Source: Escherichia virus TH41. Taken from it: a DNA stretch of 64,000 nucleotides. This document shows, in pieces, positions 3,633-42,405 of this stretch. The stretch is taken from sequence record MT446412.1, one strand, 5' to 3'. Under the pieces are notes generated by a model. That model had not been told where the DNA came from. It searched no databases and was given only the letters and a program-made list of their open reading frames with translations. The translations under genes and the position numbers were made by a program. Position 1 is the first letter of the stretch. The number at the start of each line of letters is the position of its first letter.

Positions 3633-4610
3633 ATGGCAACAGTAATTAACGGTTTGACAGTCAACGAATCCGACTTCATGTGGGAACAAAAATACCGCCC
3701 AGGTACATTATCAGAGTGTATTCTCCCGGCCCATGATAAAGAAACATTAGAGGCGATTGTTAAAAAAGGTTTGATTCCTAACTTGATTCTGGTCAGTAGT
3801 TCCCCTGGTACTGGTAAGACAACAGTTGCAAAAGCTATGTGTGCAGATACGAATTCTGATATGCTGTTTGTTAACGGCTCCGATTGCCGAATTGACTTTG
3901 TGCGTAATGAATTGACTCGCTTTGCATCATCCAAATCAATCGAAGGTCGCCGCAAGGTAATCGTTATCGATGAGTTTGACCGTGCAGGTCTGGCTGAATC
4001 ACAACGGCACCTCCGTAGCTTTATGGAAGCTTATTCGAGTAACTGTTCAATCATTATGACCGCGAACAATATTGATGGCATCATCACTCCGTTGCAGTCT
4101 CGTTGTCGCGTCATTAAGTTCGGTGAAGCAACTCCGGCTGACCAGACTACCATGATGAAAGAGATGATTCATCGTGCAGTTGCGGTATGTAAAAATGAAG
4201 GCGTTGAAATCGAAGACCTGAAAGTTGTTGCTGCTCTGGTTAAGCATAACTTCCCGGACCTGCGTAAGACAATTAACGAGCTTGACCGTTACTCTGCAAA
4301 GGGTGTTATCGATTCTGGTATTCTGAGTATCGTGACAAACAATCGCACGCCAATTGATGATGTGATTGATGCCCTTAAGGACCGTAATTTTAAAGTTCTC
4401 CGTGGTCTGGCTCCTAAGCATGCAAATGATTATTCAAGCTTCATTGCAAAGCTGGCTGATGAAATGTATGGCAAACTGACTGGTGCAAGTATCATCCGCA
4501 TGTATGAGATTGTAGGTGAGAATAATCAGTATCATGGCATTGCGGCCAATACCGAAGTTCACTTGACTTATCTGTTTGCTCAACTGGCTGGGGAAATGAA
4601 ATGGCTGTAA
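3633..4610 (+). CDS. 44: clamp loader large subunit gp44
   Basis: ATG at 3633 after AGGAAAA RBS; P-loop SPGTGKTT; AAA+ clamp-loader blocks near-identical to T4 gp44. Confidence 0.93.
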   Translation: MATVINGLTVNESDFMWEQKYRPGTLSECILPAHDKETLEAIVKKGLIPNLILVSSSPGTGKTTVAKAMCADTNSDMLFVNGSDCRIDFVRNELTRFASSKSIEGRRKVIVIDEFDRAGLAESQRHLRSFMEAYSSNCSIIMTANNIDGIITPLQSRCRVIKFGEATPADQTTMMKEMIHRAVAVCKNEGVEIEDLKVVAALVKHNFPDLRKTINELDRYSAKGVIDSGILSIVTNNRTPIDDVIDALKDRNFKVLRGLAPKHANDYSSFIAKLADEMYGKLTGASIIRMYEIVGENNQYHGIAANTEVHLTYLFAQLAGEMKWL

Positions 4611-5851: not shown

Positions 5852-8566
5852 ATGCAAGAATTTTATTTAACTATCGAACAAATCGGTGACAACCTACTCG
5901 AACGATATATTGACAAGAATGGTCATGAACGTGTTCGTGAAATCCCTTATGCTCCATGCTTGTTTATGCACGCCCGCGAAGACCAAGCTGCAAAGTATAC
6001 AGACATCTATAATAAAGGTTGTGTGAAAAAAGAATTCGATTCCATGCGTGATGCATCCCAGTGGATGAAGCGAATGAATGACATGGGTCTCGAAGCTATG
6101 GGTATGGACGACTTTAAACTCGCATACTTGTCCGACCGTTACCCACACGAAATCAAATATGATTCAAGTAAAATCCGTGTTGCTAACTTCGATATCGAGG
6201 TGACATCTCCTGATGGGTTCCCTGAACCGTCTGAAGCACGTCACCCTATTGACGCCCTGACGCACTATGATTCGGTAGACGATAAATTCTATGTCTTTGA
6301 CCTTTTGGGCTCACCATACGCCACTGTGGAGCAATGGTCTATTGATATTGCTGCTAAGCTGCAGGAAGACGGTGGTGATGAAGTCCCGGAAGAAATCCTG
6401 GAAAAAATTGTTTATATGGCTTTCGATTCAGAAGAAGAAATGCTCCAGCAGTATTTGGTATTCTGGAACGAGAAAACTCCGGTTATGTTAACTGGTTGGA
6501 ACATCGAGAAGTTTGATATTCCATATATCTACAACCGCCTTAAAAATGTATTTGGTGAAGCTACAGCAAAACGTCTGAGCCCACATCGTCGTACAAAAGT
6601 TAAGGTCATTAACAACGGCTTTGGCGAAGAACAAGAAATCATTCAGATTCTGGGTATCTCTGTTCTGGATTATCTGGACCTGTATAAAAAGTTCAGCTTC
6701 ACAAACCAACCGTCTTATTCGTTGGATTATGTTGCGGAATCTGAACTGGGTGTTGGTAAACTCCCGTATGATGGCCCGATTTCTAAACTGCGCGAATCAA
6801 ATCACCAGCGGTATATTTCTTATAACATCATCGACGTTTATCGTGTTGTGCAGATTGACCGTAAGCGACAGTTTATTAACCTGAGTCAGTCAATGGGTTA
6901 TTACGCAAAAATGCAGATTCAGTCTGTATTCAGCCCAATCAAAACTTGGGATGCGATTATCTTTAACAGCTTGAAGACTCAAAACAAAGTTATTCCGGAA
7001 ACCAAATCGCATGTTCGCCAATCGTTCCCTGGTGCATTTGTTAAGGAACCTATTCCGAACGCATACAAATATGTAATGAGCTGTGACTTAACATCTCTGT
7101 ATCCGAGCATCATCCGACAGATTAACATCAGTCCAGAAACGATTGCCGGGTCATTTGCGCCAGCCCAGATGTATGAATACATCGCAGGAACTGCTGACCG
7201 TCCATCTGATACATTTAGTTGTGCTCCAAATGGTATGATGTATTTTAAAGATGTTGCGGGTATTATTCCGACAGAAGTCACCAAGGTGTTTAATCAGCGT
7301 AAAGAGCACAAAGGCTATATGCTTGCGGCTCAACGTAATGGTGAACTGATTAAGGAAGCTCTGCGTAATCCAGGAACTGGCACAACCGAACCAGAAGTTG
7401 ATTATCGTCATGACTTTGATGACAATATGAAAACGGCCCTGCATGGTCTGAATCAAACAGTCCTAAATGGTATGCTGTACAAAGCGCAGATGGAAGAAGT
7501 TGCAGGCATGACCGCACAGATTAACCGTAAACTGCTTATCAACAGTTGTTATGGCGCTCTGGGTAATATCTGGTTCCGTTACTTTGACCTGCGAAATGCA
7601 ACCGCGATTACATCTTTCGGACAACTTGCACTGCAGTGGATTGAGCGTAAAGTTAACGAATACTTCGATAGTGTTTGTGGTACAAGCGGTGAAACTTATG
7701 TGTTCTATGGCGATACTGACTCCATTTATATCCAGTGCGATAACCTGATTAAAAAGGTTGGTGGCGAATCTAAATTCCGCGATACAAACCACCTGGTTGA
7801 CTTCATGGACAAGTTTGCGAAAGACCGTCTGGAACCGGCAATCGATAAAGCTTTCCGTGAGCTGGCTGAATACATGAACAACAAACAGCACCTTATGTTT
7901 ATGGACCGTGAGGCGATTGCATGTCCTCCGCTGGGTTCGAAGGGTGTGGGTGGATTCTGGACGGCGAAGAAGCGTTATGCGTTGAACGTGTACGATATGG
8001 AAGGCACACGTTATGCTGTTCCAAAATTGAAAATCATGGGTCTGGAAACTCAAAAGTCGAGTACTCCAAAGGCATGTCAGAAAGCTCTGAAAGAATGCAT
8101 CCGCCGTATGCTGCAAGAAGGTGAAGAATCTCTGCAGACATACTTCAAGGAATTCAATAAGGAATTTAATGAGCTTAACTACATGACCATCGCAGGGGTA
8201 TCATCGGTTAACAACATCCAGAAATATAATGAAGGTGGTTTCCCTGGATTTAAGTGCCCGGCTCATATCAAAGGTGTGCTTGCATATATGCGTGCAACTA
8301 AAGGTCTGAAGACTGTTCCGCAAATCATGGAAGGGGAAAAGGTGTATGTACTTCCTCTTAAAGTCGGCAACCCATTTGGTGAAACCGTGATTGCATGGCC
8401 ATCAGGGATTGAACTCCCGATTGAAATTCGTGACCAAGTCTTGCAGTGGATGGACTACAACACACTGTTCCAGAAGACTTTTGTCAAACCGTTAACAGGT
8501 TTCTCTGAAGCTGCAAAGGTTGATTACGAAAAGAAAGCAACTCTTTTTGATATGTTTGACTTTTAA
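5852..8566 (+). CDS. 43: DNA polymerase gp43 (family B)
   Basis: 904 aa; exonuclease and polymerase motifs (FDIE, YGDTDS); C-terminal clamp-binding tail TLFDMFDF. Confidence 0.95.
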   Translation: MQEFYLTIEQIGDNLLERYIDKNGHERVREIPYAPCLFMHAREDQAAKYTDIYNKGCVKKEFDSMRDASQWMKRMNDMGLEAMGMDDFKLAYLSDRYPHEIKYDSSKIRVANFDIEVTSPDGFPEPSEARHPIDALTHYDSVDDKFYVFDLLGSPYATVEQWSIDIAAKLQEDGGDEVPEEILEKIVYMAFDSEEEMLQQYLVFWNEKTPVMLTGWNIEKFDIPYIYNRLKNVFGEATAKRLSPHRRTKVKVINNGFGEEQEIIQILGISVLDYLDLYKKFSFTNQPSYSLDYVAESELGVGKLPYDGPISKLRESNHQRYISYNIIDVYRVVQIDRKRQFINLSQSMGYYAKMQIQSVFSPIKTWDAIIFNSLKTQNKVIPETKSHVRQSFPGAFVKEPIPNAYKYVMSCDLTSLYPSIIRQINISPETIAGSFAPAQMYEYIAGTADRPSDTFSCAPNGMMYFKDVAGIIPTEVTKVFNQRKEHKGYMLAAQRNGELIKEALRNPGTGTTEPEVDYRHDFDDNMKTALHGLNQTVLNGMLYKAQMEEVAGMTAQINRKLLINSCYGALGNIWFRYFDLRNATAITSFGQLALQWIERKVNEYFDSVCGTSGETYVFYGDTDSIYIQCDNLIKKVGGESKFRDTNHLVDFMDKFAKDRLEPAIDKAFRELAEYMNNKQHLMFMDREAIACPPLGSKGVGGFWTAKKRYALNVYDMEGTRYAVPKLKIMGLETQKSSTPKACQKALKECIRRMLQEGEESLQTYFKEFNKEFNELNYMTIAGVSSVNNIQKYNEGGFPGFKCPAHIKGVLAYMRATKGLKTVPQIMEGEKVYVLPLKVGNPFGETVIAWPSGIELPIEIRDQVLQWMDYNTLFQKTFVKPLTGFSEAAKVDYEKKATLFDMFDF

Positions 8567-9721: not shown

Positions 9722-10900
9722 ATGTCTATTGCAGATTTGAAATCCCGTTTGATTAAAGCTTCTACATCCAAAATGACTGCGACTCTTACCAAGTCCAAGT
9801 TCTTTAATGATAAAGATGTAGTTCGTACAAAAATCCCGATGCTGAACATTGCAATCAGCGGTGCACTAGATGGTGGTATGCAGTCAGGTTTGACTATTTT
9901 TGCTGGTCCGTCAAAACACTTTAAATCCAATATGGGTTTAACGATGGTCTCTGCATATATGAACAAATACCCCGATGCAATCTGTTTGTTCTATGATTCA
10001 GAATTTGGTATCACAGAAGCATATCTTCGTGCAATGAAAGTTGACCCGGAACGTGTTATCCATACACCAATCCAGTCGGTTGAACAATTGAAAGTTGATA
10101 TGGTTAACCAGCTTGAAGCAATTGAGCGTGGTGAAAAAGTCATTATCTTTATTGACTCAATCGGTAACATGGCGTCGAAAAAAGAAACAGAAGATGCGAT
10201 GAACGAAAAAGTTGTTGGCGATATGACTCGTGCTAAATCCCTGAAATCTCTGTTCCGTATTGTTACCCCATATTTTAGTATCAAGGATATTCCTTGTGTC
10301 GCGGTTAACCATACAATTGAGACGATTGAGATGTACAGCAAAACCGTTATGACCGGTGGCACAGGTGTTATGTATTCCGCAGACACCGTATTCATTATCG
10401 GCAAACGCCAGATTAAAGAAACTGGTAAAGAACTTGAAGGCTTCCAATTTGTTCTGAACGCCGAAAAATCTCGTATGGTCAAAGAGAAAAGTAAATTCTT
10501 CATTGATGTAAAATTCGATGGGGGTATTGACCCGTATTCTGGCCTGCTTGATATGGCAATGGAAATCGGATTTGTGGTGAAACCAAAAGTTGGTTGGTAT
10601 AACCGTGAATATCTTGATGTTGAGACCGGCGAAATGGTCCGCGAAGAAAAATCATGGCGCGCAAAAGATACTAACTGCACCGAATTCTGGGGTCCGCTGT
10701 TCAAGCACGAACCTTTCCGTGATGCAATTAAACGCCATTACCAACTGGGTGCAATCGATAGCAATGCTGTTGTTGATGCTGAAGTTGATGCGCTTATTGC
10801 CTCCAAGGTTGAAAAATACTCTGCTCCTGAAGGTAAGACAAAACCGTCCGCTGCAGATATCGAAAACGATTTAGATATGATGGAAGACCTTGATGAATGA
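9722..10900 (+). CDS. uvsX: RecA-like recombinase UvsX
   Basis: 392 aa; Walker A GPSKHFKS; near-collinear match to T4 UvsX. Confidence 0.95.
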   Translation: MSIADLKSRLIKASTSKMTATLTKSKFFNDKDVVRTKIPMLNIAISGALDGGMQSGLTIFAGPSKHFKSNMGLTMVSAYMNKYPDAICLFYDSEFGITEAYLRAMKVDPERVIHTPIQSVEQLKVDMVNQLEAIERGEKVIIFIDSIGNMASKKETEDAMNEKVVGDMTRAKSLKSLFRIVTPYFSIKDIPCVAVNHTIETIEMYSKTVMTGGTGVMYSADTVFIIGKRQIKETGKELEGFQFVLNAEKSRMVKEKSKFFIDVKFDGGIDPYSGLLDMAMEIGFVVKPKVGWYNREYLDVETGEMVREEKSWRAKDTNCTEFWGPLFKHEPFRDAIKRHYQLGAIDSNAVVDAEVDALIASKVEKYSAPEGKTKPSAADIENDLDMMEDLDE

Positions 10901-11234
10901 TATCGATTTATCTGATTTAGATAATTTCGAGAAAGATGCGGAGGGAGCTAAGGCTCCTTCTGTACCTTACTACGAAAAAAGTTTGGAGATTATCCGGCAA
11001 TCCATGGGAACCGTACGACAGGAAATTCTGTTATCACTCCCTGATGGGTCCAGTCACATTGTGTACGTAACCGGAATTAAAATTGAACCATCTGGAAAAG
11101 TTTCAGTTGATTTCGGCACCCCTTCTGAAGACCGCAAAGCGGAGCTTGCAGTGCATGTAGAAAAGTGTGTTACAATGCAAATACAAGATGAAATTGATAA
11201 GATTAAAATGAAAAAGAGGTGGTGGAAGTGGTAG
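10890..11234 (+). CDS. gp40-like protein (114 aa)
   Basis: Size and position between uvsX and 41 as T4 gene 40; sequence not independently recognised. Confidence 0.45.
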   Translation: MMNDIDLSDLDNFEKDAEGAKAPSVPYYEKSLEIIRQSMGTVRQEILLSLPDGSSHIVYVTGIKIEPSGKVSVDFGTPSEDRKAELAVHVEKCVTMQIQDEIDKIKMKKRWWKW

Positions 11235-12658
11235 AAACTATTTTATCCCAGCTACTCTTTAACAAGGAATATTTTGTTAAAGTCTGGCCATATCTGAATA
11301 ACACATATTTTGAAAAGGGTCCAGCAAAGACCCTTTTTAATACGATTAACGAACACGTAAAAGAATATCAAGCGGTACCAACTAAGACTGCACTTGATAT
11401 CGCGCTCGACAGTTCTGACCTTTCTGAAGTCGAATATGAAGGCACAAAGAAACTCTTAGGAGTCCTGGCCGATACTCCAGAAGACCAGGAATGGTTGGTT
11501 AAAGAAACCGAGAAGTATGTACAGAAGTCTGCGATGTTCAATGCCACATCCAGGATTATCGAAATCCAGAGCAATGCCGAACTTCCGAAAGATAAACGTG
11601 ATAAACGAATCCCGGATATTGGTGCTATCCCTGACATCATGCGCGATGCATTGTCTATCTGTTTTGACTCTGCTCTGGGCCATGACTGGTTAAACGATTA
11701 CGAAGCTCGATTCCAGACTTATCTGAACAAATCGAAGAAGGTTCCGTTCCGTATTAACATCCTGAATAAAATCACGAAGGGCGGGGTTGAGTACGGTACA
11801 GAGAACGTTTTACTGGCCGGGACGAACGTCGGCAAATCCCTTGGACTTTGTTCGCTGGCGGCTGACTATCTTCAGACTGGTCATAATGTGCTTTATATAA
11901 GCATGGAAATGGCTGAAGAAGTATGTGCCAAACGTATTGATGCCAACTTGCTGGATGTGTCTCTGGATGATATTGATGAAGGTCATGTGTCATGGGCGGA
12001 ATACAAAAGTAAGATGGAAAAATGGCGTGCAGCCGGGACCCTTGGGACTCTGAAGATAAAACAATATCCAACTGGCGGTGCTCATGCGGATACCTTCCGT
12101 GCATTGCTGAATGAATACAAACTGAAGCAAGGGTTTGTGCCGGATGTGATTATTGTTGACTACCTGGCAATCTGTGCAAGCTCAAGACTGAAAACGTTTA
12201 CCGAAAACAGTTACGGCCTGATTAAGATGGTTGCAGAAGAACTTCGTGGTCTGGCGGTCGAGAAAAATGTGGTCCTGTGGACTGCAGCGCAGACAACCAG
12301 GGGTGCGAACGTTGCAGCTGAGATTGATATGGCTGACATCGCTGAATCTTTTGGTATTGCTCACACGGCCGACTTTATGTTGGGTGTTGTTGAGACCGAA
12401 GAATTCGCTCAAATGGGACTACAGTTAATCAAACAGCTTAAGTCTCGTTACGGCGATAAGAACTACTATAATAAATTCAAGATGGGTGTTAAGAAAGGTA
12501 ATCAGCGCTGGTACGAGGTTGATGATGATTCAGCTCCTAAACAAGGCCCTACGGTTAAAGAAGCCACTGGTGAGATGAATCGCCAGGCTGAAATGAATAG
12601 ACAAACCAGGGTCAACAGGAGCGACCTGGACGACCTTGCTGCTCAAATGAAATTCTAA
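11219..12658 (+). CDS. 41: replicative DNA helicase gp41 (DnaB family)
   Basis: Walker A GTNVGKS, DnaB-like blocks matching T4 gp41; start probably GTG at 11228 (M-V-E-T-I-L) overlapping gp40 stop. Confidence 0.93.
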   Translation: MVEVVETILSQLLFNKEYFVKVWPYLNNTYFEKGPAKTLFNTINEHVKEYQAVPTKTALDIALDSSDLSEVEYEGTKKLLGVLADTPEDQEWLVKETEKYVQKSAMFNATSRIIEIQSNAELPKDKRDKRIPDIGAIPDIMRDALSICFDSALGHDWLNDYEARFQTYLNKSKKVPFRINILNKITKGGVEYGTENVLLAGTNVGKSLGLCSLAADYLQTGHNVLYISMEMAEEVCAKRIDANLLDVSLDDIDEGHVSWAEYKSKMEKWRAAGTLGTLKIKQYPTGGAHADTFRALLNEYKLKQGFVPDVIIVDYLAICASSRLKTFTENSYGLIKMVAEELRGLAVEKNVVLWTAAQTTRGANVAAEIDMADIAESFGIAHTADFMLGVVETEEFAQMGLQLIKQLKSRYGDKNYYNKFKMGVKKGNQRWYEVDDDSAPKQGPTVKEATGEMNRQAEMNRQTRVNRSDLDDLAAQMKF

Positions 12659-12677
12659 AGACCTTCGGGTCTTTTTC
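12658..12677 (+). terminator. intrinsic terminator (TTCG tetraloop)
   Basis: AGACC-TTCG-GGTCT followed by TTTTT right after gene 41 stop. Confidence 0.65.
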
Positions 12678-12685
12678 ATTTAGAG

Positions 12686-12715
12686 GTTTACAACACCATA
12701 AAAAGGGTGTACTAT
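12686..12715 (+). promoter_or_regulatory. early promoter cassette
   Basis: GTTTACA, spacer hairpin ACACC..GGTGT, TACTAT; leader CATCAACTACTGATGAGG. Confidence 0.5.
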
Positions 12716-12746
12716 TATCCCATCAACTACTGATGAGGATAATAAA

Positions 12747-12995
12747 ATGTTATTAGTTAATGTGCAGTACCAGTTCAAATCTGAAGAAGCTCTCCAAAAG
12801 TATGCTGATATTTGTGAGCATAATAAAAGAACAGCTGCCATTGTTGGTCTGAAGCCTTTTAAAATTTTGGATTGCTCCTTGAACAGAGCAAGACGCTGGT
12901 GTAGTGTTGCCTGTCATGCTTCAGTTGAAGGGAATGATTATTTTTTCATTACTTTCAATGCACAAGATTTTCATTTAATTAATGAATTAAAATAG
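12747..12995 (+). CDS. hypothetical protein (82 aa)
   Basis: ORF with RBS, preceded by cassette promoter and leader. Confidence 0.55.
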   Translation: MLLVNVQYQFKSEEALQKYADICEHNKRTAAIVGLKPFKILDCSLNRARRWCSVACHASVEGNDYFFITFNAQDFHLINELK

Positions 12996-13024
12996 TGTAC
13001 AAGCCCCTTGTCTTAGGACATAAT
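12995..13024 (+). promoter_or_regulatory. early promoter cassette
   Basis: GTGTACA, 17 nt, CATAAT; leader CCATACTGAGTT. Confidence 0.6.
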
Positions 13025-13073
13025 GATTCCATACTGAGTTACACAATAAACCAACTGTTAAAAGGAAAACCAT

Positions 13074-13376
13074 ATGTTTAATCAAACCGATATGAACCGT
13101 TACTATTTTGGTCAGTTCGCTCGCCGTGATGAAAACTGTGCTGCTCTTATCGCATCAGGCATTCAAACTGGTAAATTAATAAAGCTCAAAAGCGATGTTC
13201 AACCTTCATCTGTTCGCAGCTCTCTTCGTGAGTATCTGCTTGCAGGCGGGGCAGTATATGTTATCGCTGAACCTTTTGTTAACGTGTGCGACGATTACAC
13301 AATTAGTGTGACTGTTATGCACCCAACTACTGGGAAAATTCGTTGTCTGACTATGCACAACTATGAGTTGGCGTAA
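13074..13376 (+). CDS. hypothetical protein (100 aa)
   Basis: ORF following the cassette promoter. Confidence 0.55.
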   Translation: MFNQTDMNRYYFGQFARRDENCAALIASGIQTGKLIKLKSDVQPSSVRSSLREYLLAGGAVYVIAEPFVNVCDDYTISVTVMHPTTGKIRCLTMHNYELA

Positions 13377-13383
13377 GTGAATA

Positions 13384-13406
13384 AAGGGGCTTACAGCCCC
13401 TTTTTC
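13384..13406 (+). terminator. intrinsic terminator fused to a -10/leader
   Basis: GGGGCT-TAC-AGCCCC followed by TTTTT, then TATAAT and leader CTATCAACTACTGGAG. Confidence 0.65.
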
Positions 13407-13444
13407 TTATGTTATAATGACTCTATCAACTACTGGAGAATAAA

Positions 13445-13762
13445 ATGAAAACCATTGATTGCAAGGCAGAATACAAAGTTTATTATCATGGGTCAAGTTC
13501 TAATGCTGGAATCCAAAATATGCTTTGTCCTCCTGATGCAACTGGTGTTCTGTCAGAAGTTGGGCGTAAGAAAAATTTAGGGCGTGTGTTTTTTACTGAA
13601 GATATTGGTTTGGCGCGTATCTATGCAGGAAGAGCAGCTCGCTCATATGGAGGAGAACCCCGTCTTTATCGTGTGATTGCACCTGTTGACGTGGTTTGTT
13701 TAAATGATACTAAAGGCGCAACAGTTTATCACGCTGACTGGGCCTTCTGTGAGGAAATCTAA
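13445..13762 (+). CDS. hypothetical protein with PARP/diphtheria-toxin-like H-G-S motif (105 aa)
   Basis: YYHGSSSNAGIQNM then GRVFFTEDIGLARIYAG pattern; see findings. Confidence 0.55.
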   Translation: MKTIDCKAEYKVYYHGSSSNAGIQNMLCPPDATGVLSEVGRKKNLGRVFFTEDIGLARIYAGRAARSYGGEPRLYRVIAPVDVVCLNDTKGATVYHADWAFCEEI

Positions 13763-13966
13763 ATGTATAAATTAGAGAACGTAGTATTTATTGGTTGGTT
13801 TGAAAATGGTAATATGTTTACCAAAGAAACCGCGCTGGATGTCAGTGACAAAAATATGATTGAATGGGTTACAGTGCAGTATGCGGAAGTGAATAATGCG
13901 CTGGTTAAAGCCTTTGTTAATGACAATAAAGTTTTTGAATATGATGCCCGCATTGAGGAAATCTAA
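13763..13966 (+). CDS. hypothetical protein (67 aa)
   Basis: ORF abutting the previous stop; shares NALVKAFVND block with the next ORF. Confidence 0.5.
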   Translation: MYKLENVVFIGWFENGNMFTKETALDVSDKNMIEWVTVQYAEVNNALVKAFVNDNKVFEYDARIEEI

Positions 13967-14308
13967 ATGACTTTTAATCCAGAAGACCGCGTAAAAGTAA
14001 CAATCAAAGTGAGTGCCGTTGGCGTTCCATCTTTTGAGCGCTCAAGTATGTTCCATCCCGCAGGTATTCACTGGTATGTTCAGAAGACTGCTGATAACTA
14101 TAATGCGCTTGTTGAAGCTTTTGTTGATGGCGAGCTAATCCATAAAGTAGACATGCGTAAGGGCACTGCATTGCGTAATCTTATCTTGACCGTTGAAGCT
14201 CAACTGGTAAATGAAGAAATCTGCCTTACTGATATTGAAGCAGCTCTTCATATTGCACGTGCTGAATATTACAAATTGACTGGTTTTTCAGTTGAAGGTG
14301 AAAAATAA
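13967..14308 (+). CDS. hypothetical protein (113 aa)
   Basis: ORF; NALVEAFVDG block paralogous to the previous ORF. Confidence 0.55.
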   Translation: MTFNPEDRVKVTIKVSAVGVPSFERSSMFHPAGIHWYVQKTADNYNALVEAFVDGELIHKVDMRKGTALRNLILTVEAQLVNEEICLTDIEAALHIARAEYYKLTGFSVEGEK

Positions 14309-14338
14309 GTGTACATCAAAGGGGTAATGCAGTATATT
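14309..14338 (+). promoter_or_regulatory. early promoter cassette
   Basis: GTGTACA, 17 nt, TATATT; leader CTATCAACTACTGAGGAG. Confidence 0.6.
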
Positions 14339-14366
14339 ATCCCTATCAACTACTGAGGAGATTGAA

Positions 14367-14660
14367 ATGAAAAAGTTATTAATCGCAGCAATTCTTACCG
14401 TAGCATCATGTGGTACAGCCCCAGTTACTGCTGGGCTTGATAAAGACCTTTGTGAGTGGTCCATGACTGCGGACCAGACTGATGTTGAACACCAGATTTA
14501 TGCTGACATCATGAACATTACTAAACGTGACCACCCAGATATGGTTAAAGAAGTATCTGACCAACTGGCTTCTGGTGACGTTATGCAGTATAACTATGTT
14601 CTGTATTGCGATGCTTCATTTGACAACAGCAAGATTGTTCAATGGGTTACAGGTGAATAA
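14367..14660 (+). CDS. putative lipoprotein (97 aa)
   Basis: Signal peptide with lipobox TVASC. Confidence 0.55.
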   Translation: MKKLLIAAILTVASCGTAPVTAGLDKDLCEWSMTADQTDVEHQIYADIMNITKRDHPDMVKEVSDQLASGDVMQYNYVLYCDASFDNSKIVQWVTGE

Positions 14661-14661
14661 A

Positions 14662-15102
14662 ATGATTAACAGAAATTTAGTTATCAAAAAACTTCGTTGT
14701 AAAAATCAAAATGCACAAGCATACAGGATGTTTTGGAGCGACGAACCCATTCAATACCTGGGTTATTTTCTTGTTGATAGTGATAATAGAATTACGTTTG
14801 CTCATAAACTTCTTAACAAAGAATTAAACCATTGGCAAGAACTTATTGCGGTCAAGTCTAAATTATTTTCGCGCAATACAATGCACCAATTGGTTTATTT
14901 TTTCGCTGACGGTATTCCTGACAAGGTTGAGTTTGATGGGTTTGAATTTAAAGACATCACCCCTGATAATGAATTGAATGACAGTATTGTTAATATGGGT
15001 ATCCCGGGTAAGTACATCAAAAACAGTCTTTTGAAACTTCTGGAAACCCCTGTATATTCAGTTGACGACCAGATTTTTAATGCCTTCATGAAGCGAGATT
15101 AG
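14662..15102 (+). CDS. hypothetical protein (146 aa) with C-terminal DDQIFNAFMKRD tail
   Basis: ATG at 14662 (track ORF 14527 is a GTG-extended version overlapping the lipoprotein); tail shared with next ORF. Confidence 0.55.
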   Translation: MINRNLVIKKLRCKNQNAQAYRMFWSDEPIQYLGYFLVDSDNRITFAHKLLNKELNHWQELIAVKSKLFSRNTMHQLVYFFADGIPDKVEFDGFEFKDITPDNELNDSIVNMGIPGKYIKNSLLKLLETPVYSVDDQIFNAFMKRD

Positions 15103-15103
15103 T

Positions 15104-15463
15104 ATGAGTTATTATAATTTTCTGAATTTTGAACTGGCGAGCAATAATGATGGTAATGCTCATTATGAATTTCGTGAGCCACGGTTTAATCAAGCGATTG
15201 GTTATATTATCGTCAAAGATGATGTTATCATAAAGGCTCGCTCATTTATGGTAATGAATGGACCTTATGAAGATACTCGCGGCTATCCATTTGATAAAAA
15301 GAATGTGCGCGATTGTGCAGCATGGATAACCGGAAACCCCGAAATTGGGGTCATGATATCTACTGAAGCGAATGACATTCTGGAAGGGGTTTGGGCCAAA
15401 GCTCAAGAATCGTCTATTGCTATTGACGACCAGATTTTTAATGCCTTCATGAAACGAGGTTAA
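15104..15463 (+). CDS. hypothetical protein (119 aa) with C-terminal DDQIFNAFMKRG tail
   Basis: ORF; last about 36 nt nearly identical to the 3' end of the preceding gene. Confidence 0.55.
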   Translation: MSYYNFLNFELASNNDGNAHYEFREPRFNQAIGYIIVKDDVIIKARSFMVMNGPYEDTRGYPFDKKNVRDCAAWITGNPEIGVMISTEANDILEGVWAKAQESSIAIDDQIFNAFMKRG

Positions 15464-15464
15464 T

Positions 15465-15686
15465 ATGTTTGTTTTAACTCAATTTTCTAAAGCAACATAT
15501 AGCTACTCTTGTCAATGGGAAGTCTTCATTGATACACCGTCTCCCAAGTATGGAGTTTTCGGACGAGTAACTACACAAGCTTATGTTGCGCGACCAACCA
15601 AACGTCAGATTCGTAAGCTTAAAAAGGCGCATCGCCAACTGATTAAAAGAAGGGAACAATATGAGTGCAATGTGTACGGGCTCTAA
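15465..15686 (+). CDS. hypothetical protein (73 aa, basic C-terminus)
   Basis: ORF starting 2 nt after the previous stop. Confidence 0.45.
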   Translation: MFVLTQFSKATYSYSCQWEVFIDTPSPKYGVFGRVTTQAYVARPTKRQIRKLKKAHRQLIKRREQYECNVYGL

Positions 15687-15871: not shown

Positions 15872-16039
15872 ATGAAAACATTCAAAGATTTTATCAACGA
15901 AAATATGGTTGCCGGTGATGCAGGTGGAAATCCAACTAATATCGCAACAGGTACCACTTCCGGGGCAGTTGTCAATAAAGGCCCTGAACAAATCCCATCA
16001 AAAAAGCGTAAGAACAAAGACGATAAACCTACAGTATAA
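15872..16039 (+). CDS. small hypothetical protein (55 aa)
   Basis: ATG after GGGGGTG RBS; MKTFKDFINEN...KKRKNKDDKPTV; below the ORF-track size cutoff. Confidence 0.35.
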   Translation: MKTFKDFINENMVAGDAGGNPTNIATGTTSGAVVNKGPEQIPSKKRKNKDDKPTV

Positions 16040-16071: not shown

Positions 16072-17100
16072 ATGTCATATATTGATAAAGAATTTGCGGT
16101 TAGAGCTTTATCGTATCAACCACGTTATAGAGAAGTCACCGGGAGCACATTTAAAGCAAACTGTCGTTGCAAGGTTTGTGGGGACTCCCAGAAAGATTCA
16201 CACAAGGCTCGATTCTGGGCGTATACTAATCCGGCTGATGGCGCGGTTTACGTGAAATGTTTTAACTGTGACTACTCCACGCATATAAGCAAATACATAA
16301 AAGAGTTTGAGCCGGATTTACACTGGGAATATATGGTTGAGAAGTATAAGGAGAATGCCTTTGGCAGACAACGTAATGAAGTTGCCGAAACTCCGAAAGA
16401 ACCAGAAAAAACTCCGGTTATCGAAGAGCTTGCTTTTTGTGAAAGACTCGATACTTTACCAGAAGCGCATCCTATAATTAAGTATGTAAAAAGTCGGTGT
16501 ATTCCTAGCAATGTTTGGAACCGGTTATGGTTTACAAACAAATGGCCTGCATTAGTTAACTCCGTTAATCCTGGGACGTATAAGAATGAAACGAATGAAC
16601 CACGCTTGGTTATTCCTATCTTCAACGGCAAAAAAGAAATCGAATCTTTCCAAGGACGAGCTCTTCGCAAAGATGCACCACAAAAATATATCACAATCAA
16701 AGCTCACCCAGAAGCTTCCAAAGTCTATGGTGTAGACAAGATTGATGAGCGCAAGCGCGTGTGGGTAATGGAAGGTCCGATTGATAGTTTGTTTATCCCT
16801 AACAGCATTGCGATAACTGGTGGAACATTGTCATTGGAAGCCGTTCCTTATCCAGAAACCAGAGTATGGGTAATGGACAACGAACCAAGACATCCGGATA
16901 CGATTAAACGTATGAAGAAGCTCGTTGAAGCTGGCGAAGCTGTTATGTTCTGGGACAATGCACCATGGCATACGAAAGACATAAATGAGATGGTTAAATC
17001 AGAAGGAGCAACCCCTGAACAAATCGAATCATATATGGCTGATAACGTTGCCCAAGGATTGATGGCGAGAATGCGACTTTCGAAGTACGCAAAAGTTTAG
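16072..17100 (+). CDS. 61: DNA primase gp61
   Basis: 342 aa as in T4; N-terminal zinc ribbon CRCKVCGDS...CFNCDYS plus TOPRIM-like core. Confidence 0.93.
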   Translation: MSYIDKEFAVRALSYQPRYREVTGSTFKANCRCKVCGDSQKDSHKARFWAYTNPADGAVYVKCFNCDYSTHISKYIKEFEPDLHWEYMVEKYKENAFGRQRNEVAETPKEPEKTPVIEELAFCERLDTLPEAHPIIKYVKSRCIPSNVWNRLWFTNKWPALVNSVNPGTYKNETNEPRLVIPIFNGKKEIESFQGRALRKDAPQKYITIKAHPEASKVYGVDKIDERKRVWVMEGPIDSLFIPNSIAITGGTLSLEAVPYPETRVWVMDNEPRHPDTIKRMKKLVEAGEAVMFWDNAPWHTKDINEMVKSEGATPEQIESYMADNVAQGLMARMRLSKYAKV

Positions 17101-20565: not shown

Positions 20566-21126
20566 ATGAACATCATCAAATCTGATACCGAACCCAACCA
20601 GTTAAAATTTAATGAAATGGAGATAGCTTCATTATTTGAATGCCGCGCATCAAAGGTTGATAAGACCTTACATTCAAACATCAACTCAATCATCAAGTCA
20701 AGGTTGTCTATACCTGATACAGTCTTGTATCGTGGGGTAACCCAGCAAGAGATTGATTTGTTAGATGAAGCAAAAGAATCAATGCAACCTTTTGAATTTG
20801 GAAGGATAACCTCCTTTACAGAAGACTATGGTATTGCCAGGGATTTTGCTGCAATGGAATATGTGTCAAGGACTATCATCAGATTGAATCATACAAAAGC
20901 TTTTTGTTATCATGATGCGATGCGCAAAATCGCGCTTGACGTTCCACTGGAATTCTTCAATACAGCCTCTGGTTCCGAACAGGCAGCAACGTTAAGGCGT
21001 GAAGAATACATGGACATGATTGATTCTGAGCTTGAATGGTTTGTTCCAGTTGACCAGAAATTCGTGATAGTTGATGCTGGATTTGTTGATGATTATTATG
21101 TTCTTGACTGTGTACAAGAGCAATAA
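20566..21126 (+). CDS. mono-ADP-ribosyltransferase, ModA/ModB family (first copy)
   Basis: R-S-E motif set: LYRG, TSFT, ELEWFVP; 186 aa; T4 modB position. Confidence 0.6.
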   Translation: MNIIKSDTEPNQLKFNEMEIASLFECRASKVDKTLHSNINSIIKSRLSIPDTVLYRGVTQQEIDLLDEAKESMQPFEFGRITSFTEDYGIARDFAAMEYVSRTIIRLNHTKAFCYHDAMRKIALDVPLEFFNTASGSEQAATLRREEYMDMIDSELEWFVPVDQKFVIVDAGFVDDYYVLDCVQEQ

Positions 21127-21170: not shown

Positions 21171-21785
21171 ATGCTGTACACTGATGACGTTTTGAATGGA
21201 ATTATTGACATTGCCGCTTCTAGTGAGTCTTTTCGTAACCAATGTCAAGCGGAGATTGATGCTCTTTATACAGATAATGAACAATCAGTACTCTGGCAGT
21301 GTATGGAAAATAAACCCGACCTGATTCAAGAAGACTTAACCAGGATTATCCGCAACAATCTGAATACTGCACCACCTGCGGCATTGTTCCGTGGTATATC
21401 AAAGAAAACTATGGAATACCTGGAAGATTTCAGATATGTTGGTGCAACGATTGAGTTCAATCGTGTGATGAGTTTTTCCAGGGACTGGCAGGTTGCAAGA
21501 AATTTCGCATCATACAGTTTCTATGGCACAAGGAATATTTTCTGCATAAACAATGCACCATATGCGTATAACTATCAGGAAGCAATCTTTAAAATGATTT
21601 GTGGCGCTCCTCCTGAAGAGTTCAATGGTGCATATCCAGAAGCAACCAGGAAGTCAAACTTACACCTGGTTAATGATGAGGATGAGTTTATGTTTCCCGC
21701 TGGGACTACGCTTCGCGTAGACTTGATTGAGACACACCCATTGAATAACCTTTATACTGTTTGGCATTTGACTGTTTTGAACTAA
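21171..21785 (+). CDS. mono-ADP-ribosyltransferase, ModA/ModB family (second copy)
   Basis: LFRG, SFSRD, DEDEFMFP; ATG at 21171 after leader CTATCAACTACTGATGAGG; 204 aa. Confidence 0.6.
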   Translation: MLYTDDVLNGIIDIAASSESFRNQCQAEIDALYTDNEQSVLWQCMENKPDLIQEDLTRIIRNNLNTAPPAALFRGISKKTMEYLEDFRYVGATIEFNRVMSFSRDWQVARNFASYSFYGTRNIFCINNAPYAYNYQEAIFKMICGAPPEEFNGAYPEATRKSNLHLVNDEDEFMFPAGTTLRVDLIETHPLNNLYTVWHLTVLN

Positions 21786-21920: not shown

Positions 21921-22667
21921 ATGACTTTATCAAAAACCAAAACGTTGAAAGTTAAACGTCGTCTGGAACACACTCAAGCTTCCGCTAAACGCCGCGGTAA
22001 AGACTTTAACCTGGATTTTGATTATCTGGTTAATATTCTTGACCAAAAAGTTTGTGCTTATTCTGGTGAGACATTTAATAACTCTATTGAAGGTGAGAAG
22101 TTATCATTAGAGCGTTTTAACAATGATATTGGTTATATCAAGGGTAATGTTATTCCTGTTAAAAAGAAATACAATACCATGCGTTCTGATTGGTCCTTGG
22201 ATGAGCTTAAACAACGTCGCGATGATGTTGCTGTAAAAATTGCTCGCCCCTCTGCCAAGAAGATTGAAAAGTTAAATCTGACTTCAGAGAAATGGGAACA
22301 GATTAAAAAGTCATATACTCATATCAAGAACATCCAGCACAAACGTGATAATCGCGTTAAGCATTATGCTCAAATGAGTAAATCAGAGCAGTCCAAAGAA
22401 AACCAATTAAAAATGGTTGCTCTGAAGGCTCGCATTGATGGTTCCCGTGTTGCGGAAGGACATGAGCTTACTAAATTGAATGTCCTGCTCAAAGGTAATG
22501 ACTGGAAAGTTACCAAGAAATTAACTGATGCTGAAACGCTTTTTGATTGCTATGATAAAATCATTCAAGGTCTTGAGCGTTTTGAGAAGATTGGTTTTAT
22601 TGGTAAATTAAAACTGAAACGTGGTCTGCCTTTGAACGCGTCAATTTTTAAACTGATTAGAGGTTAA
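21921..22667 (+). CDS. hypothetical lysine-rich protein (248 aa; T4 srd position)
   Basis: Position downstream of the ART genes and upstream of dda; size close to T4 Srd. Confidence 0.4.
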   Translation: MTLSKTKTLKVKRRLEHTQASAKRRGKDFNLDFDYLVNILDQKVCAYSGETFNNSIEGEKLSLERFNNDIGYIKGNVIPVKKKYNTMRSDWSLDELKQRRDDVAVKIARPSAKKIEKLNLTSEKWEQIKKSYTHIKNIQHKRDNRVKHYAQMSKSEQSKENQLKMVALKARIDGSRVAEGHELTKLNVLLKGNDWKVTKKLTDAETLFDCYDKIIQGLERFEKIGFIGKLKLKRGLPLNASIFKLIRG

Positions 22668-41519: not shown

Positions 41520-42127
41520 ATCCATTAAAAGGTAAAGCGTTATCCTTTAAAGACCGTATGGCCTTGTTAGATAAAGCTCTTTCTCGGGAGACTCCTGAAA
41601 GTCTCGCTGCTAAATTACATGCATACGGTGATTACACCGAATATAATGAAGAAGGTAATTGTGAAATGAATCCGTTTATCACTCGTTTAGAAATGTTACC
41701 AGCACCAGAATCGCGTGAAACCCCCAAAAGCCTCGCTGAAAAATTTAAAGCACATGGATACACATGCGATGAAAAAGATATTCTGGAAGAAGTCCCAGAA
41801 ATCTGTTGGCAGATTGCACATTGGAATAACAATGAAAAATATCAGCGACGGATTGTATGTGCCGCCAACCGATTTAAGTTAAAAGATGGTGGGACTCTGG
41901 TTATTCCTGGTGCCAGACATTATTCCAAGGATATGGCAGAAGTGCTTGACCAAGTAAGTGATAAACTTGTGTCAGACCATGTTTGTGGTGTTAATCAAGG
42001 ATTCATTGACCAGTACAGCAATTACTGGACCCGCGAAGAAGCAATGATTATTGCGACTTATGCAAATCAAGTGCGTATTGAACGTGGCGGTAGTGAAAAA
42101 GAACTTTATTCAGAGGACCTTTATTAA
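41516..42127 (+). CDS. hypothetical protein (203 aa) with internal tandem repeat
   Basis: [16 protein letters not shown] / [16 protein letters not shown] repeated N-terminally. Confidence 0.5.
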
Positions 42128-42405
42128 TGAACCTTAAACAACTCCAGATTGATGCAATCGAAACCCATATCAATCATATCAAACGTCTGAACACTATGAT
42201 GGAAGACAACTGGGGAACTTATGTTAACCAGCCGGCTTGGGATGCTTTAGACCATGAATATATAAAGGATATTAGTGATAACACGTATAGAGTTAGAGAA
42301 GGTCTGAAACCCTTCCTACGTGATATGTATATTGCAACTAATAAAGAAATTATCAGTTCTCTTGAATATCAATTAAGGAAATTGCATGAACAATCTGGTA
42401 GCTAA
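42127..42405 (+). CDS. hypothetical protein (92 aa)
   Basis: ORF. Confidence 0.5.
   Translation: MNLKQLQIDAIETHINHIKRLNTMMEDNWGTYVNQPAWDALDHEYIKDISDNTYRVREGLKPFLRDMYIATNKEIISSLEYQLRKLHEQSGS

Follow-up and report, generated by a model that had tools for sequence, protein, structure and literature searches.

What does a T4-like phage encode in the small open reading frame (ORF) placed between gene 41 and dmd? The question arose from a 64,000-nucleotide stretch of Escherichia virus TH41 (sequence record MT446412.1; hereafter the window), which comes from a T4-like (Straboviridae) coliphage. A reading of the letters alone (the original prediction) had noted in the 105-residue product a resemblance to H-Y-E class ADP-ribosyltransferases (ARTs) of the PARP and diphtheria toxin kind and had suggested that the protein may be reduced to a module that binds nicotinamide adenine dinucleotide (NAD+) or ADP-ribose. 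This interpretation proved essentially right: the protein is a minimal ART core. As to its function, the balance of probability tips slightly towards a minimal, stand-alone NAD+-dependent mono-ADP-ribosyltransferase that serves early host takeover or counter-defence. The gene in question, called the ART gene here, is the following.

13445–13762, plus strand: ART ORF of 105 amino acids and 11.6 kDa, phrog_2110, a minimal Arr/Tpt1-like ADP-ribosyltransferase-fold protein.

The ORF runs from an ATG start to a TAA stop as originally described, and it is clearly a real, constrained gene, since it is preceded by a GGAG and a promoter-like site, matches PHROG family phrog_2110 over its full length (E 1e-58), recurs by tblastn in 609 phage records (Escherichia 215, Klebsiella 116, Acinetobacter 68 and Aeromonas 62, and also Enterobacter, Vibrio and others) and keeps 19 invariant residues in a 35-sequence alignment with 52–87% identity to the query. 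Both motifs quoted in the original prediction are present, YYHGSSSNAGIQNM at residues 13–26 and GRVFFTEDIGLARIYAG at residues 46–62, and their separation, given as about 30 residues, is 31 from H15 to G46. The proposed Y-x10-Y element needs amendment. Its second tyrosine is there (Y60), but the first aromatic is F49, and this position is Phe in 210 of the 212 family members (109 close and 103 distant homologues) from which all residue conservation was taken, so that the element reads F49-x10-Y60. Taken alone, these motifs are weak evidence, barely above chance: residue-shuffled six-frame stretches should contain the loose pattern HG[ST]-x25-45-[YF]-x10-Y 0.26 times per window, and it was observed once, at this ORF, while a stricter pattern appeared in 0 of 200 shuffles. 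A motif by chance was ruled out by the fold and profile evidence.

An AlphaFold2 model built on the alignment (predicted local distance difference test (pLDDT) 87, predicted template modelling score (pTM) 0.78) contained the split beta-sheet core of the ART fold, whose absence the original prediction had named as a refutation, with strands at residues 13–18, 48–51, 72–81, 84–87, 94–97 and 99–104 and a helix at 54–68. The fold list for this model gave figures of 8.5 for Tpt1, 7.9 for Arr, 6.5 for AcrIF11, 6.0 for diphtheria toxin, 5.7 for OspC3, 5.4 for DarT and 5.1 for PARP15, with Pertussis-like and RES toxins ranking lower, and the third BFVD match to the model was a phage protein annotated as 'Rifampin ADP-ribosyl transferase' (E 1.7e-8). 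A profile search over 1.84 billion representative proteins retrieved 242 relatives. The single 105-residue sequence had no match in Pfam, PDB sequences, NCBIfam or PADLOC, and a profile of close homologues (profile A1) had none in the PDB; a profile of diverse members (profile A2) matched Arr and ARR-2 and nothing else there (E 8e-4 to 1e-3). Relatives found by the family profile at E ≤1e-25 exceed the Pfam Arr-ms gathering score (26.9, 27.5 and 29.4 versus 25), and stand-alone homologues with 45–54% identity carry a precomputed PF12120 match. The ART fold assignment was thus borne out by the model, by the match between profile A2 and Arr and by the Arr-ms-passing relatives. The nearest kin are not PARP or diphtheria toxin but Arr and Tpt1/KptA, and sequence comparison points to a family that is spread across phages and has relatives in Arr and in the Tpt1/KptA NAD lobe. 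That the protein is much shorter than canonical enzymes is explained by its being the bare NAD-binding core, which lacks both the C-terminal antibiotic-binding helix of Arr and the N-terminal RNA lobe of Tpt1.

The ART assignment itself is not new: Iyer et al. 2022 (PMC9503650) had made it for what is very probably this family, and several GenBank records carry labels such as 'putative ADP-ribosyl transferase'. We add the placement beside Arr and Tpt1 together with an explicit failure as Arr, an H-F-[TS] triad with a recurrent D53/E93 swap, and a quantitative case against an ART–Dmd pair. Two other database labels are unsupported. Record MW233709.1 of Escherichia phage UPEC01 calls the ORF (42061–42375, equal to window positions 13445–13759) 'clamp loaded subunit DNA polymerase', and a clamp loader subunit identity found no support; a Klebsiella phage record names a homologue 'rifampin ADP-ribosyl transferase'.

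The elements of the putative active site map to the window as follows.

13481–13495, plus strand: strand 1, Y13-Y14-H15-G16-S17, the H-G-[ST] NAD-binding motif; H15 equals Arr H19 and the segment aligns with Arr YLHGT.
13553–13579, plus strand: basic loop S37-E38-V-G40-R41-K42-K43-N44-L45 between strands 1 and 2, equivalent to Arr loop F39-E40-A-G42-R43.
13586–13603, plus strand: strand 2 and beyond, V48-F49-F50-T51-E52-D53, with F49 at the position whose Tyr (Arr Y49) or His (KptA) defines the class.
13622–13624, plus strand: Y60, second aromatic of [YF]-x10-Y, in helix 54–68, invariant in 212 of 212 members.
13715–13726, plus strand: G91-A92-T93-V94, start of strand 5 (94–97 in the model), with T93 at the canonical catalytic [EDQ] position.

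The strand-1 histidine of the H-G-[ST] motif, which contacts NAD+ in ARTs, is present and almost universally kept (H15 in 211 members, G16 in all 212). T51 is kept in 209, and so, nearly, are two residues of the basic loop, E38 (208) and R41 (209). In this loop pLDDT is lower (67–77); the equivalent loop of Arr is flexible and has been proposed as a gate of the NAD+ pocket (bioRxiv 10.64898/2026.05.04.722716). The H-Y-E triad of the original prediction did not survive: what is found is H15, F49 (plus Y60) and T93, with an invariant D53 apparently replacing the strand-5 acid. The nicotinamide-stacking strand-2 tyrosine that characterizes the H-Y-[EDQ] clade is Phe in all members except the two with Tyr, a conservative aromatic exchange. 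Position 93 is Thr or Ser in 107 of the 109 close homologues, all of which have D53; in the 103 distant members it is Glu in 18, Asp in 5 and Asn in 4, and in giant polyvalent proteins it is Glu in 8 of 9. D53 has its counterpart in the D of HLSAD in KptA and, among R-S-E toxins, in the third position of the S-T-S motif; judging from general ART architecture it should lie close to strand 5.

Positions 53 and 93 behave reciprocally. D53 was combined with Thr or Ser at 93 in 65 sequences and Ser or Thr at 53 with Glu or Asp at 93 in 19, while both positions were acidic in only 1 (Fisher p = 2.7e-14, uncorrected for phylogeny), and exactly one carboxylate occupied the two positions in 88% of the distant members. 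Of all positions, 53 also shared the most mutual information with acidity at 93 (0.58 bits, as against 0.31 for the runner-up). The exchange was seen between nearest neighbours, homologue P0175 (S/E) being closest to P0164 (D/S) and P0195 (S/E) closest to P0145 (D/T), and Fitch parsimony on a neighbour-joining tree required at least 18 state changes at 53/93; the swap appears to have arisen several times independently. This reciprocity suggests that the active-site carboxylate has been relocated, with 53 and 93 as alternative sources of it, and therefore that the enzyme is live. The nearest active enzymes, Arr and Tpt1, likewise work without a strand-5 Glu (PMC8492726 for Arr).

The same residues bear on a rival explanation, in which the protein is a non-catalytic binder of NAD+ or ADP-ribose, either a sponge or decoy for NAD-derived signals such as the cyclic ADP-ribose (cADPR) isomers of Thoeris, or a sensor or regulator. 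Such a binder would account for the missing strand-5 acid in all T4-like phage members, and it would keep NAD-site residues for binding alone; a small, early protein also resembles known sponges, and one homologue lies near Tad2-like and Acb2/Tad1-like sponge genes. However, pure binding hardly explains why the acid at 53 or 93 is exchanged and not simply lost, and the activity of Arr and Tpt1 deprives the missing Glu of much of its force. We regard a pure binder as rather unlikely.

The domain architectures speak to the same choice. The ART domain stands alone in proteins of 95–145 amino acids, but it is also common inside phage polyvalent proteins of 1.5–3.9 thousand residues, with ART-PolyVal, NUDIX, GNAT, LPD23 and CHAP domains, and it occurs in a fusion in which it sits between a lambda-type portal protein and a 2H/Acb1-like domain; further carriers are DUF7178, PcfJ-like and GNAT-Toprim proteins. 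Polyvalent proteins are virion-delivered effectors, of which each virion brings only a few copies (Iyer et al. 2017, PMC5512222). Such numbers would not suffice for a sponge and speak for an enzyme rather than a stoichiometric binder. Among individual homologues (P0148, P0149, P0173 and P0142) we observed the fusions portal–domain–2H/Acb1-like phosphoesterase, ART-PolyVal–domain–NUDIX, GNAT–Toprim–domain and DUF7178–domain. The association of an ART with enzymes acting on ADP-ribose-phosphate products (2H and NUDIX) recalls the Tpt1 pathway.

Across phage genera, the genomic setting was always one of early host-takeover genes, including the 41–61 gap in Escherichia coli and Acinetobacter phages; in RB16 the ART gene adjoins srd and rnlB, in Aeromonas phage AS-yj it adjoins asiA, and it was also found beside a NAMPT gene. 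The sponge neighbours mentioned above come from an unrelated metagenomic phage, in which the ART homologue lies 1.5–4 kb from anti-Thoeris and anti-CBASS sponge genes of known type; on this 56.7-kb Joint Genome Institute contig (L072), homologue P0287 occupies 6001–6294, and the Tad2-like gene (1780–2031) and the Acb2/Tad1-hairpin gene (4253–4567) are on the opposite strand. Upstream of the ART gene we found gp41 at 13 loci, a protein of 250–300 amino acids and unknown function (phrog_7439/7204) at 12, and diverse genes at the rest. The phrog_7439/7204 gene (L001 1567–2472, L003 1683–2441 and 10 more loci) occurs in RB16-like Pseudotevenvirus/Klebsiella and Aeromonas phages; its product has no Pfam match and no homologue in the window, and it may be a lineage-specific partner. 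Examination of upstream and downstream genes revealed no partner conserved at all ART loci, and the contexts of the most distant homologues, P0114 (a jumbo phage) and P0115 (a 2-kb contig), were uninformative, as were those of P0283 and P0264.

Several observations weigh against an NAD+-dependent enzyme of counter-defence. The canonical catalytic acid of strand 5 is absent, Thr or Ser taking its place in nearly all close homologues, and the role proposed for D53 comes from covariation whose statistic ignores phylogeny. Conserved NAD-site residues are equally expected in a pure binder. Homology of the 105-residue protein to Arr was reached only via profile A2 or intermediate sequences, and our literature search found no experimental study of this protein family. 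Finally, the protein is 53–100% identical across phages of very different hosts, which is unusual for counter-defence against one patchy system and fits a universal target better.

With these points in view, we still favour the mono-ADP-ribosyltransferase, for which we infer catalysis, a catalytic role of D53, early expression and an anti-host role. In this model, an early promoter would transcribe the ART gene right after infection as the first gene of the dmd operon. The protein would bind NAD+ through H15-G16-S17, F49, T51 and Y60, D53 would act as the active-site carboxylate (with other family members using strand-5 position 93), and the basic loop S37–L45 would position NAD+, the acceptor or both. 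A single ADP-ribose would then be transferred to a host component, whether a protein, a nucleic acid or a small molecule, and this transfer would aid host takeover or disable a host defence. Precedents are T4 Alt, which acts on MazF and RNA polymerase, and AcrIF11, which acts on Cas8f. More speculatively, the acceptor may be conserved and possibly not a protein, because Arr and Tpt1 act on oxygen nucleophiles of substrates other than proteins, the conserved loop is basic and the sequence is kept unusually well among phages of distant hosts. A more specific version, which we put forward only as a tentative possibility, is that of a widespread class of phage counter-defence enzymes, minimal ARTs in which the residue after strand 2 (D53) has taken over from strand 5 as the catalytic carboxylate. 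Members would be expressed in the first seconds at the head of an 'anti-TA island' (TA, toxin–antitoxin) and would ADP-ribosylate and inactivate a conserved host immune component, which might be a TA toxin or RNase, a sensor of nucleic acids or a signal derived from NAD, and the E93 form would act in injected polyvalent virion proteins.

Early expression is suggested by signals immediately upstream of the ORF.

13383–13403, plus strand: G+C-rich stem-loop followed by a T run (terminator scan: 9 pairs, 5 of them G-C, loop of 3).
13390–13418, plus strand: sigma-70-type early promoter candidate, CTTACA, 17-nucleotide spacer, TATAAT, with TG at 13410–13411 (extended -10).
13435–13438, plus strand: Shine-Dalgarno GGAG, 6 nucleotides 5' of the ATG, read from the sequence.

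The candidate promoter was the joint-best promoter-like site in 12600–14800 (10 of 12 positions matched, with TG), and it overlaps the stem-loop. The stem-loop is predicted to terminate transcription of the upstream unit and to make up one half of a PeSL-like promoter/terminator composite; its form, A3G4...C4T3, fits the PeSL description (PMC4122927). The candidate may function as an early promoter: in the T4 dmd-tifA operon an early promoter 5' of dmd drives transcription (PMC9391042), and in the window the ART gene sits between that position and dmd. A second composite of stem-loop and sigma-70-like promoter was seen at 12657–12715 on the plus strand, so that such composites flank the small genes between 41 and dmd. 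PeSL cassettes flank variable genes and have been proposed to mediate their shuffling in T4-type phages (PMC4122927).

The neighbouring dmd gene raises the question of whether the two form a functional unit. The ART stop codon abuts the dmd start codon (TAAATG), and the genes are probably co-transcribed. Iyer et al. 2022 (PMC9503650) proposed that an ART of the p0068 family and Dmd constitute a type II TA system in Escherichia, Shigella and Salmonella phages, which would make the ART a toxin and Dmd its antitoxin. The arrangement described there matches ours, and in some larger proteins the ART domain comes last, as a toxin module would. However, a Dmd homologue lay within 4 kb of the ART gene at 10 of 56 IMG/VR loci and directly downstream at 10 of the 49 with a downstream ORF called, and the downstream genes belong to at least 18 unrelated families. 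The taxonomic ranges also differ. Dmd occurs in 797 phage records, nearly all from Escherichia, Shigella, Yersinia, Salmonella and Citrobacter phages and mostly without the ART gene, whereas the latter is found in 116 Klebsiella, 68 Acinetobacter and 62 Aeromonas phages, hosts from which Dmd records are rare or absent; the sampled Klebsiella, Acinetobacter and Aeromonas ART loci had no Dmd nearby. In T4, dmd directly follows gene 41 and stands alone. Moreover, a host target of Dmd is already proven (RnlA/LsoA), it is not evident why a strictly lytic phage should neutralize a toxin directed at its host, and tight gene spacing is the rule in such genomes. An obligate ART–Dmd pair therefore fails on co-occurrence: dmd is a neighbour and no obligate partner, the published TA pairing is poorly supported, and we consider a toxin neutralized by Dmd very improbable.

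The gene order around the ART gene is given below.

9728–10897: uvsX.
10890–11234: gene 40.
11219–12658: gene 41 (helicase).
12747–12995, plus strand: goF-like ORF of 82 amino acids, phrog_2980 'goF mRNA metabolism modulator' (4.5e-20), with a weak CGNR zinc-finger match.
13074–13376: phrog_17014 gene of unknown function.
13763–13966, plus strand: dmd, antitoxin against RnlA/LsoA (Pfam Dmd E 1.1e-20; 57% identity to T4 Dmd).
13967–14308, plus strand: Dmd-like ORF of 113 amino acids directly 3' of dmd, with its own family, phrog_23762.
14367–14660: spackle.
About 14662–15102 and 15104–15463, plus strand: two adjacent ORFs with an AdfA-like C-terminus.
15465–15686, plus strand: TifA-like ORF of 73 amino acids.
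15872–16039: 61.1.
16072–17100: gene 61.

The T4 order over the same interval is 41-dmd-tifA-sp-adfA-61.1-61, with nothing between 41 and dmd and no counterpart of the ART ORF. The 2.1 kb around the ORF (12600–14700) are 99.6% identical to phage UPEC01 and 96–98% identical to TH44, 212, PSD2001, SP18 and VR20, but close relatives align over only 50–84% of this stretch, which indicates that the interval between 41 and dmd is plastic. Residues 30–65 of the 113-residue ORF are Dmd-like (PHROG Dmd 3.3e-4, Pfam Dmd 0.19), and T4 Dmd matches the equivalent ORF of locus L005 (4.8e-4). The 113-residue ORF probably represents a Dmd paralogue that has diverged and is longer, and it may be a second antitoxin mimic. 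The ORFs at about 14662–15463 share the C-terminal ending ...DDQIFNAFMKR[D/G], which is the C-terminal motif of T4 AdfA (gene 61.2, anti-DarT; tblastn 6e-4, AdfA residues 188–208), and they look like tandem AdfA-related genes with differing N-terminal parts. The T4 interval between 41 and 61 with dmd, tifA and adfA has been termed an 'anti-TA island' (PMC9391042). The ORF at 15465–15686 is 41% identical over 49 residues to T4 TifA (61.4, inhibitor of ToxN; 8e-10), so that the window keeps the full set of dmd, tifA-like and adfA-like genes. Elsewhere in the window, two Mod-like ADP-ribosyltransferase genes of the R-S-E clade lie on the plus strand at about 20605–21075 and 21204–21704, adjoining srd (21921–22664), with 33–36% identity to T4 ModB and 28% to ModA; together with the ART ORF, this gives at least three ART-fold genes.

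ADP-ribosylation is central to the conflict between phages and bacteria: DarT and CmdT hit phage DNA and mRNA, while Alt, ModA, ModB and AcrIF11 reprogramme or disarm the host. At least 609 sequenced genomes of phages that infect Escherichia, Klebsiella, Acinetobacter, Aeromonas and Vibrio carry a member of the present family, and many of these phages are candidates for phage therapy. If active, the protein would be a fourth ART in the T4-like toolkit, the smallest known ART type and a case from nature in which a catalytic residue has changed its place within a fold. Identifying the target could bring to light a host vulnerability or defence system not known before. Counter-defence screens would do well to include the gene, although it will not surprise specialists. 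A caution attaches to the database labels, since a 'rifampin resistance enzyme' on phage genomes would wrongly flag therapeutic phages as carriers of antibiotic-resistance genes.

That label leads to the comparison with Arr (PF12120; PDB 2HW2, 9IAF and 9IBA), the only sequence-level relative in the PDB. Arr has 143 residues as against 105, and only its residues 13–82 align with the phage family, the hidden Markov model (HMM) alignments ending at 82. Beyond that point the phage protein runs on for about 20 residues and Arr for about 60, so that the former stops some 40 residues before the Arr end, and its model has no C-terminal helix. Missing are counterparts of the catalytic D84, the K91 lid and the C-terminal helix alpha-2 (lid and helix described in bioRxiv 10.64898/2026.05.04.722716), which build the rifamycin cleft, and with them both rifampin-binding sites of Arr (site 1, residues 87–95; site 2, residues 126–133 in helix alpha-2; PMC8492726). 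Opposite Arr D83-D84, the family motif EPxGxIExLN has by eye a hydrophobic residue or Asn and no conserved acid. Arr Y49 is replaced by Phe, the putative acid is at D53, and the carriers are lytic phages with the gene among early genes, whereas Arr resides on bacterial chromosomes or integrons. By family thresholds, the window protein reaches none in Pfam or NCBIfam; its distant relatives pass the Pfam threshold, as given above, but fail the NCBIfam equivalog rifampin_ARR (NF033144), scoring about 25 bits against a cut-off of 130 over model positions 2–70 of 131 only. Orthology to Arr in the strict sense, with inactivation of rifamycins or a comparable small-molecule antibiotic, as some database annotations would have it, was thus rejected on three defining features, and we regard this function as extremely improbable.

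Tpt1/KptA (PDB 9LD3 and 7KW9) suggests a further rival, an enzyme acting on nucleic-acid phosphates that would remove 2'-phosphates from RNA or cap 5'-phosphates of RNA or DNA with ADP-ribose, in RNA repair or protection from host RNases. The phage protein indeed resembles the C-terminal NAD lobe, aligning with residues 98–155 of the 184 of KptA. The N-terminal RNA lobe of Tpt1 carries three residues of its R-H-R-R tetrad; this lobe, and hence the tetrad, is absent from the phage protein, which has one lobe where Tpt1 has two. The hhalign match to E. coli KptA was marginal (E 0.013, probability 3%) and was used only for the motif register, and the family profile matched Arr but not Tpt1 in the PDB. 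We consider a Tpt1-like activity improbable.

AcrIF11, an anti-CRISPR ADP-ribosyltransferase of phages and plasmids (PDB 6KYF), shows no detected sequence similarity and a different genomic setting. ART-PolyVal (PF18760), the H-Y-D ART of polyvalent proteins, is a family of its own, to which a single one of 35 homologues gave a weak match (E 0.25). Both domains occur in giant virion-delivered polyvalent proteins, and in homologues P0127 and P0149 they co-occur as separate domains. The closest published counterpart is the 'p0068-like' viral ART, which is among the commonest viral ART families and includes a predicted ART immediately 5' of Dmd in Escherichia and Shigella phages (PMC9503650). Matched by this verbal description, our family is very probably the same; it was assigned there to the H-Y-[EDQ] clade as a TA toxin, whereas the phage members analysed here are H-F-[TS] with D53 and their pairing with Dmd is not conserved. 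T4 Alt, ModA and ModB are likewise ADP-ribosyltransferases of T4-like phages and act early on host proteins; Alt also acts on the MazF toxin (cited in bioRxiv 10.1101/2025.11.20.689424). They are, however, R-S-E enzymes of about 200–680 amino acids and belong to a different clade. Since the TH41 window has its own two Mod-like genes, the ART gene described here is an additional and unrelated one.

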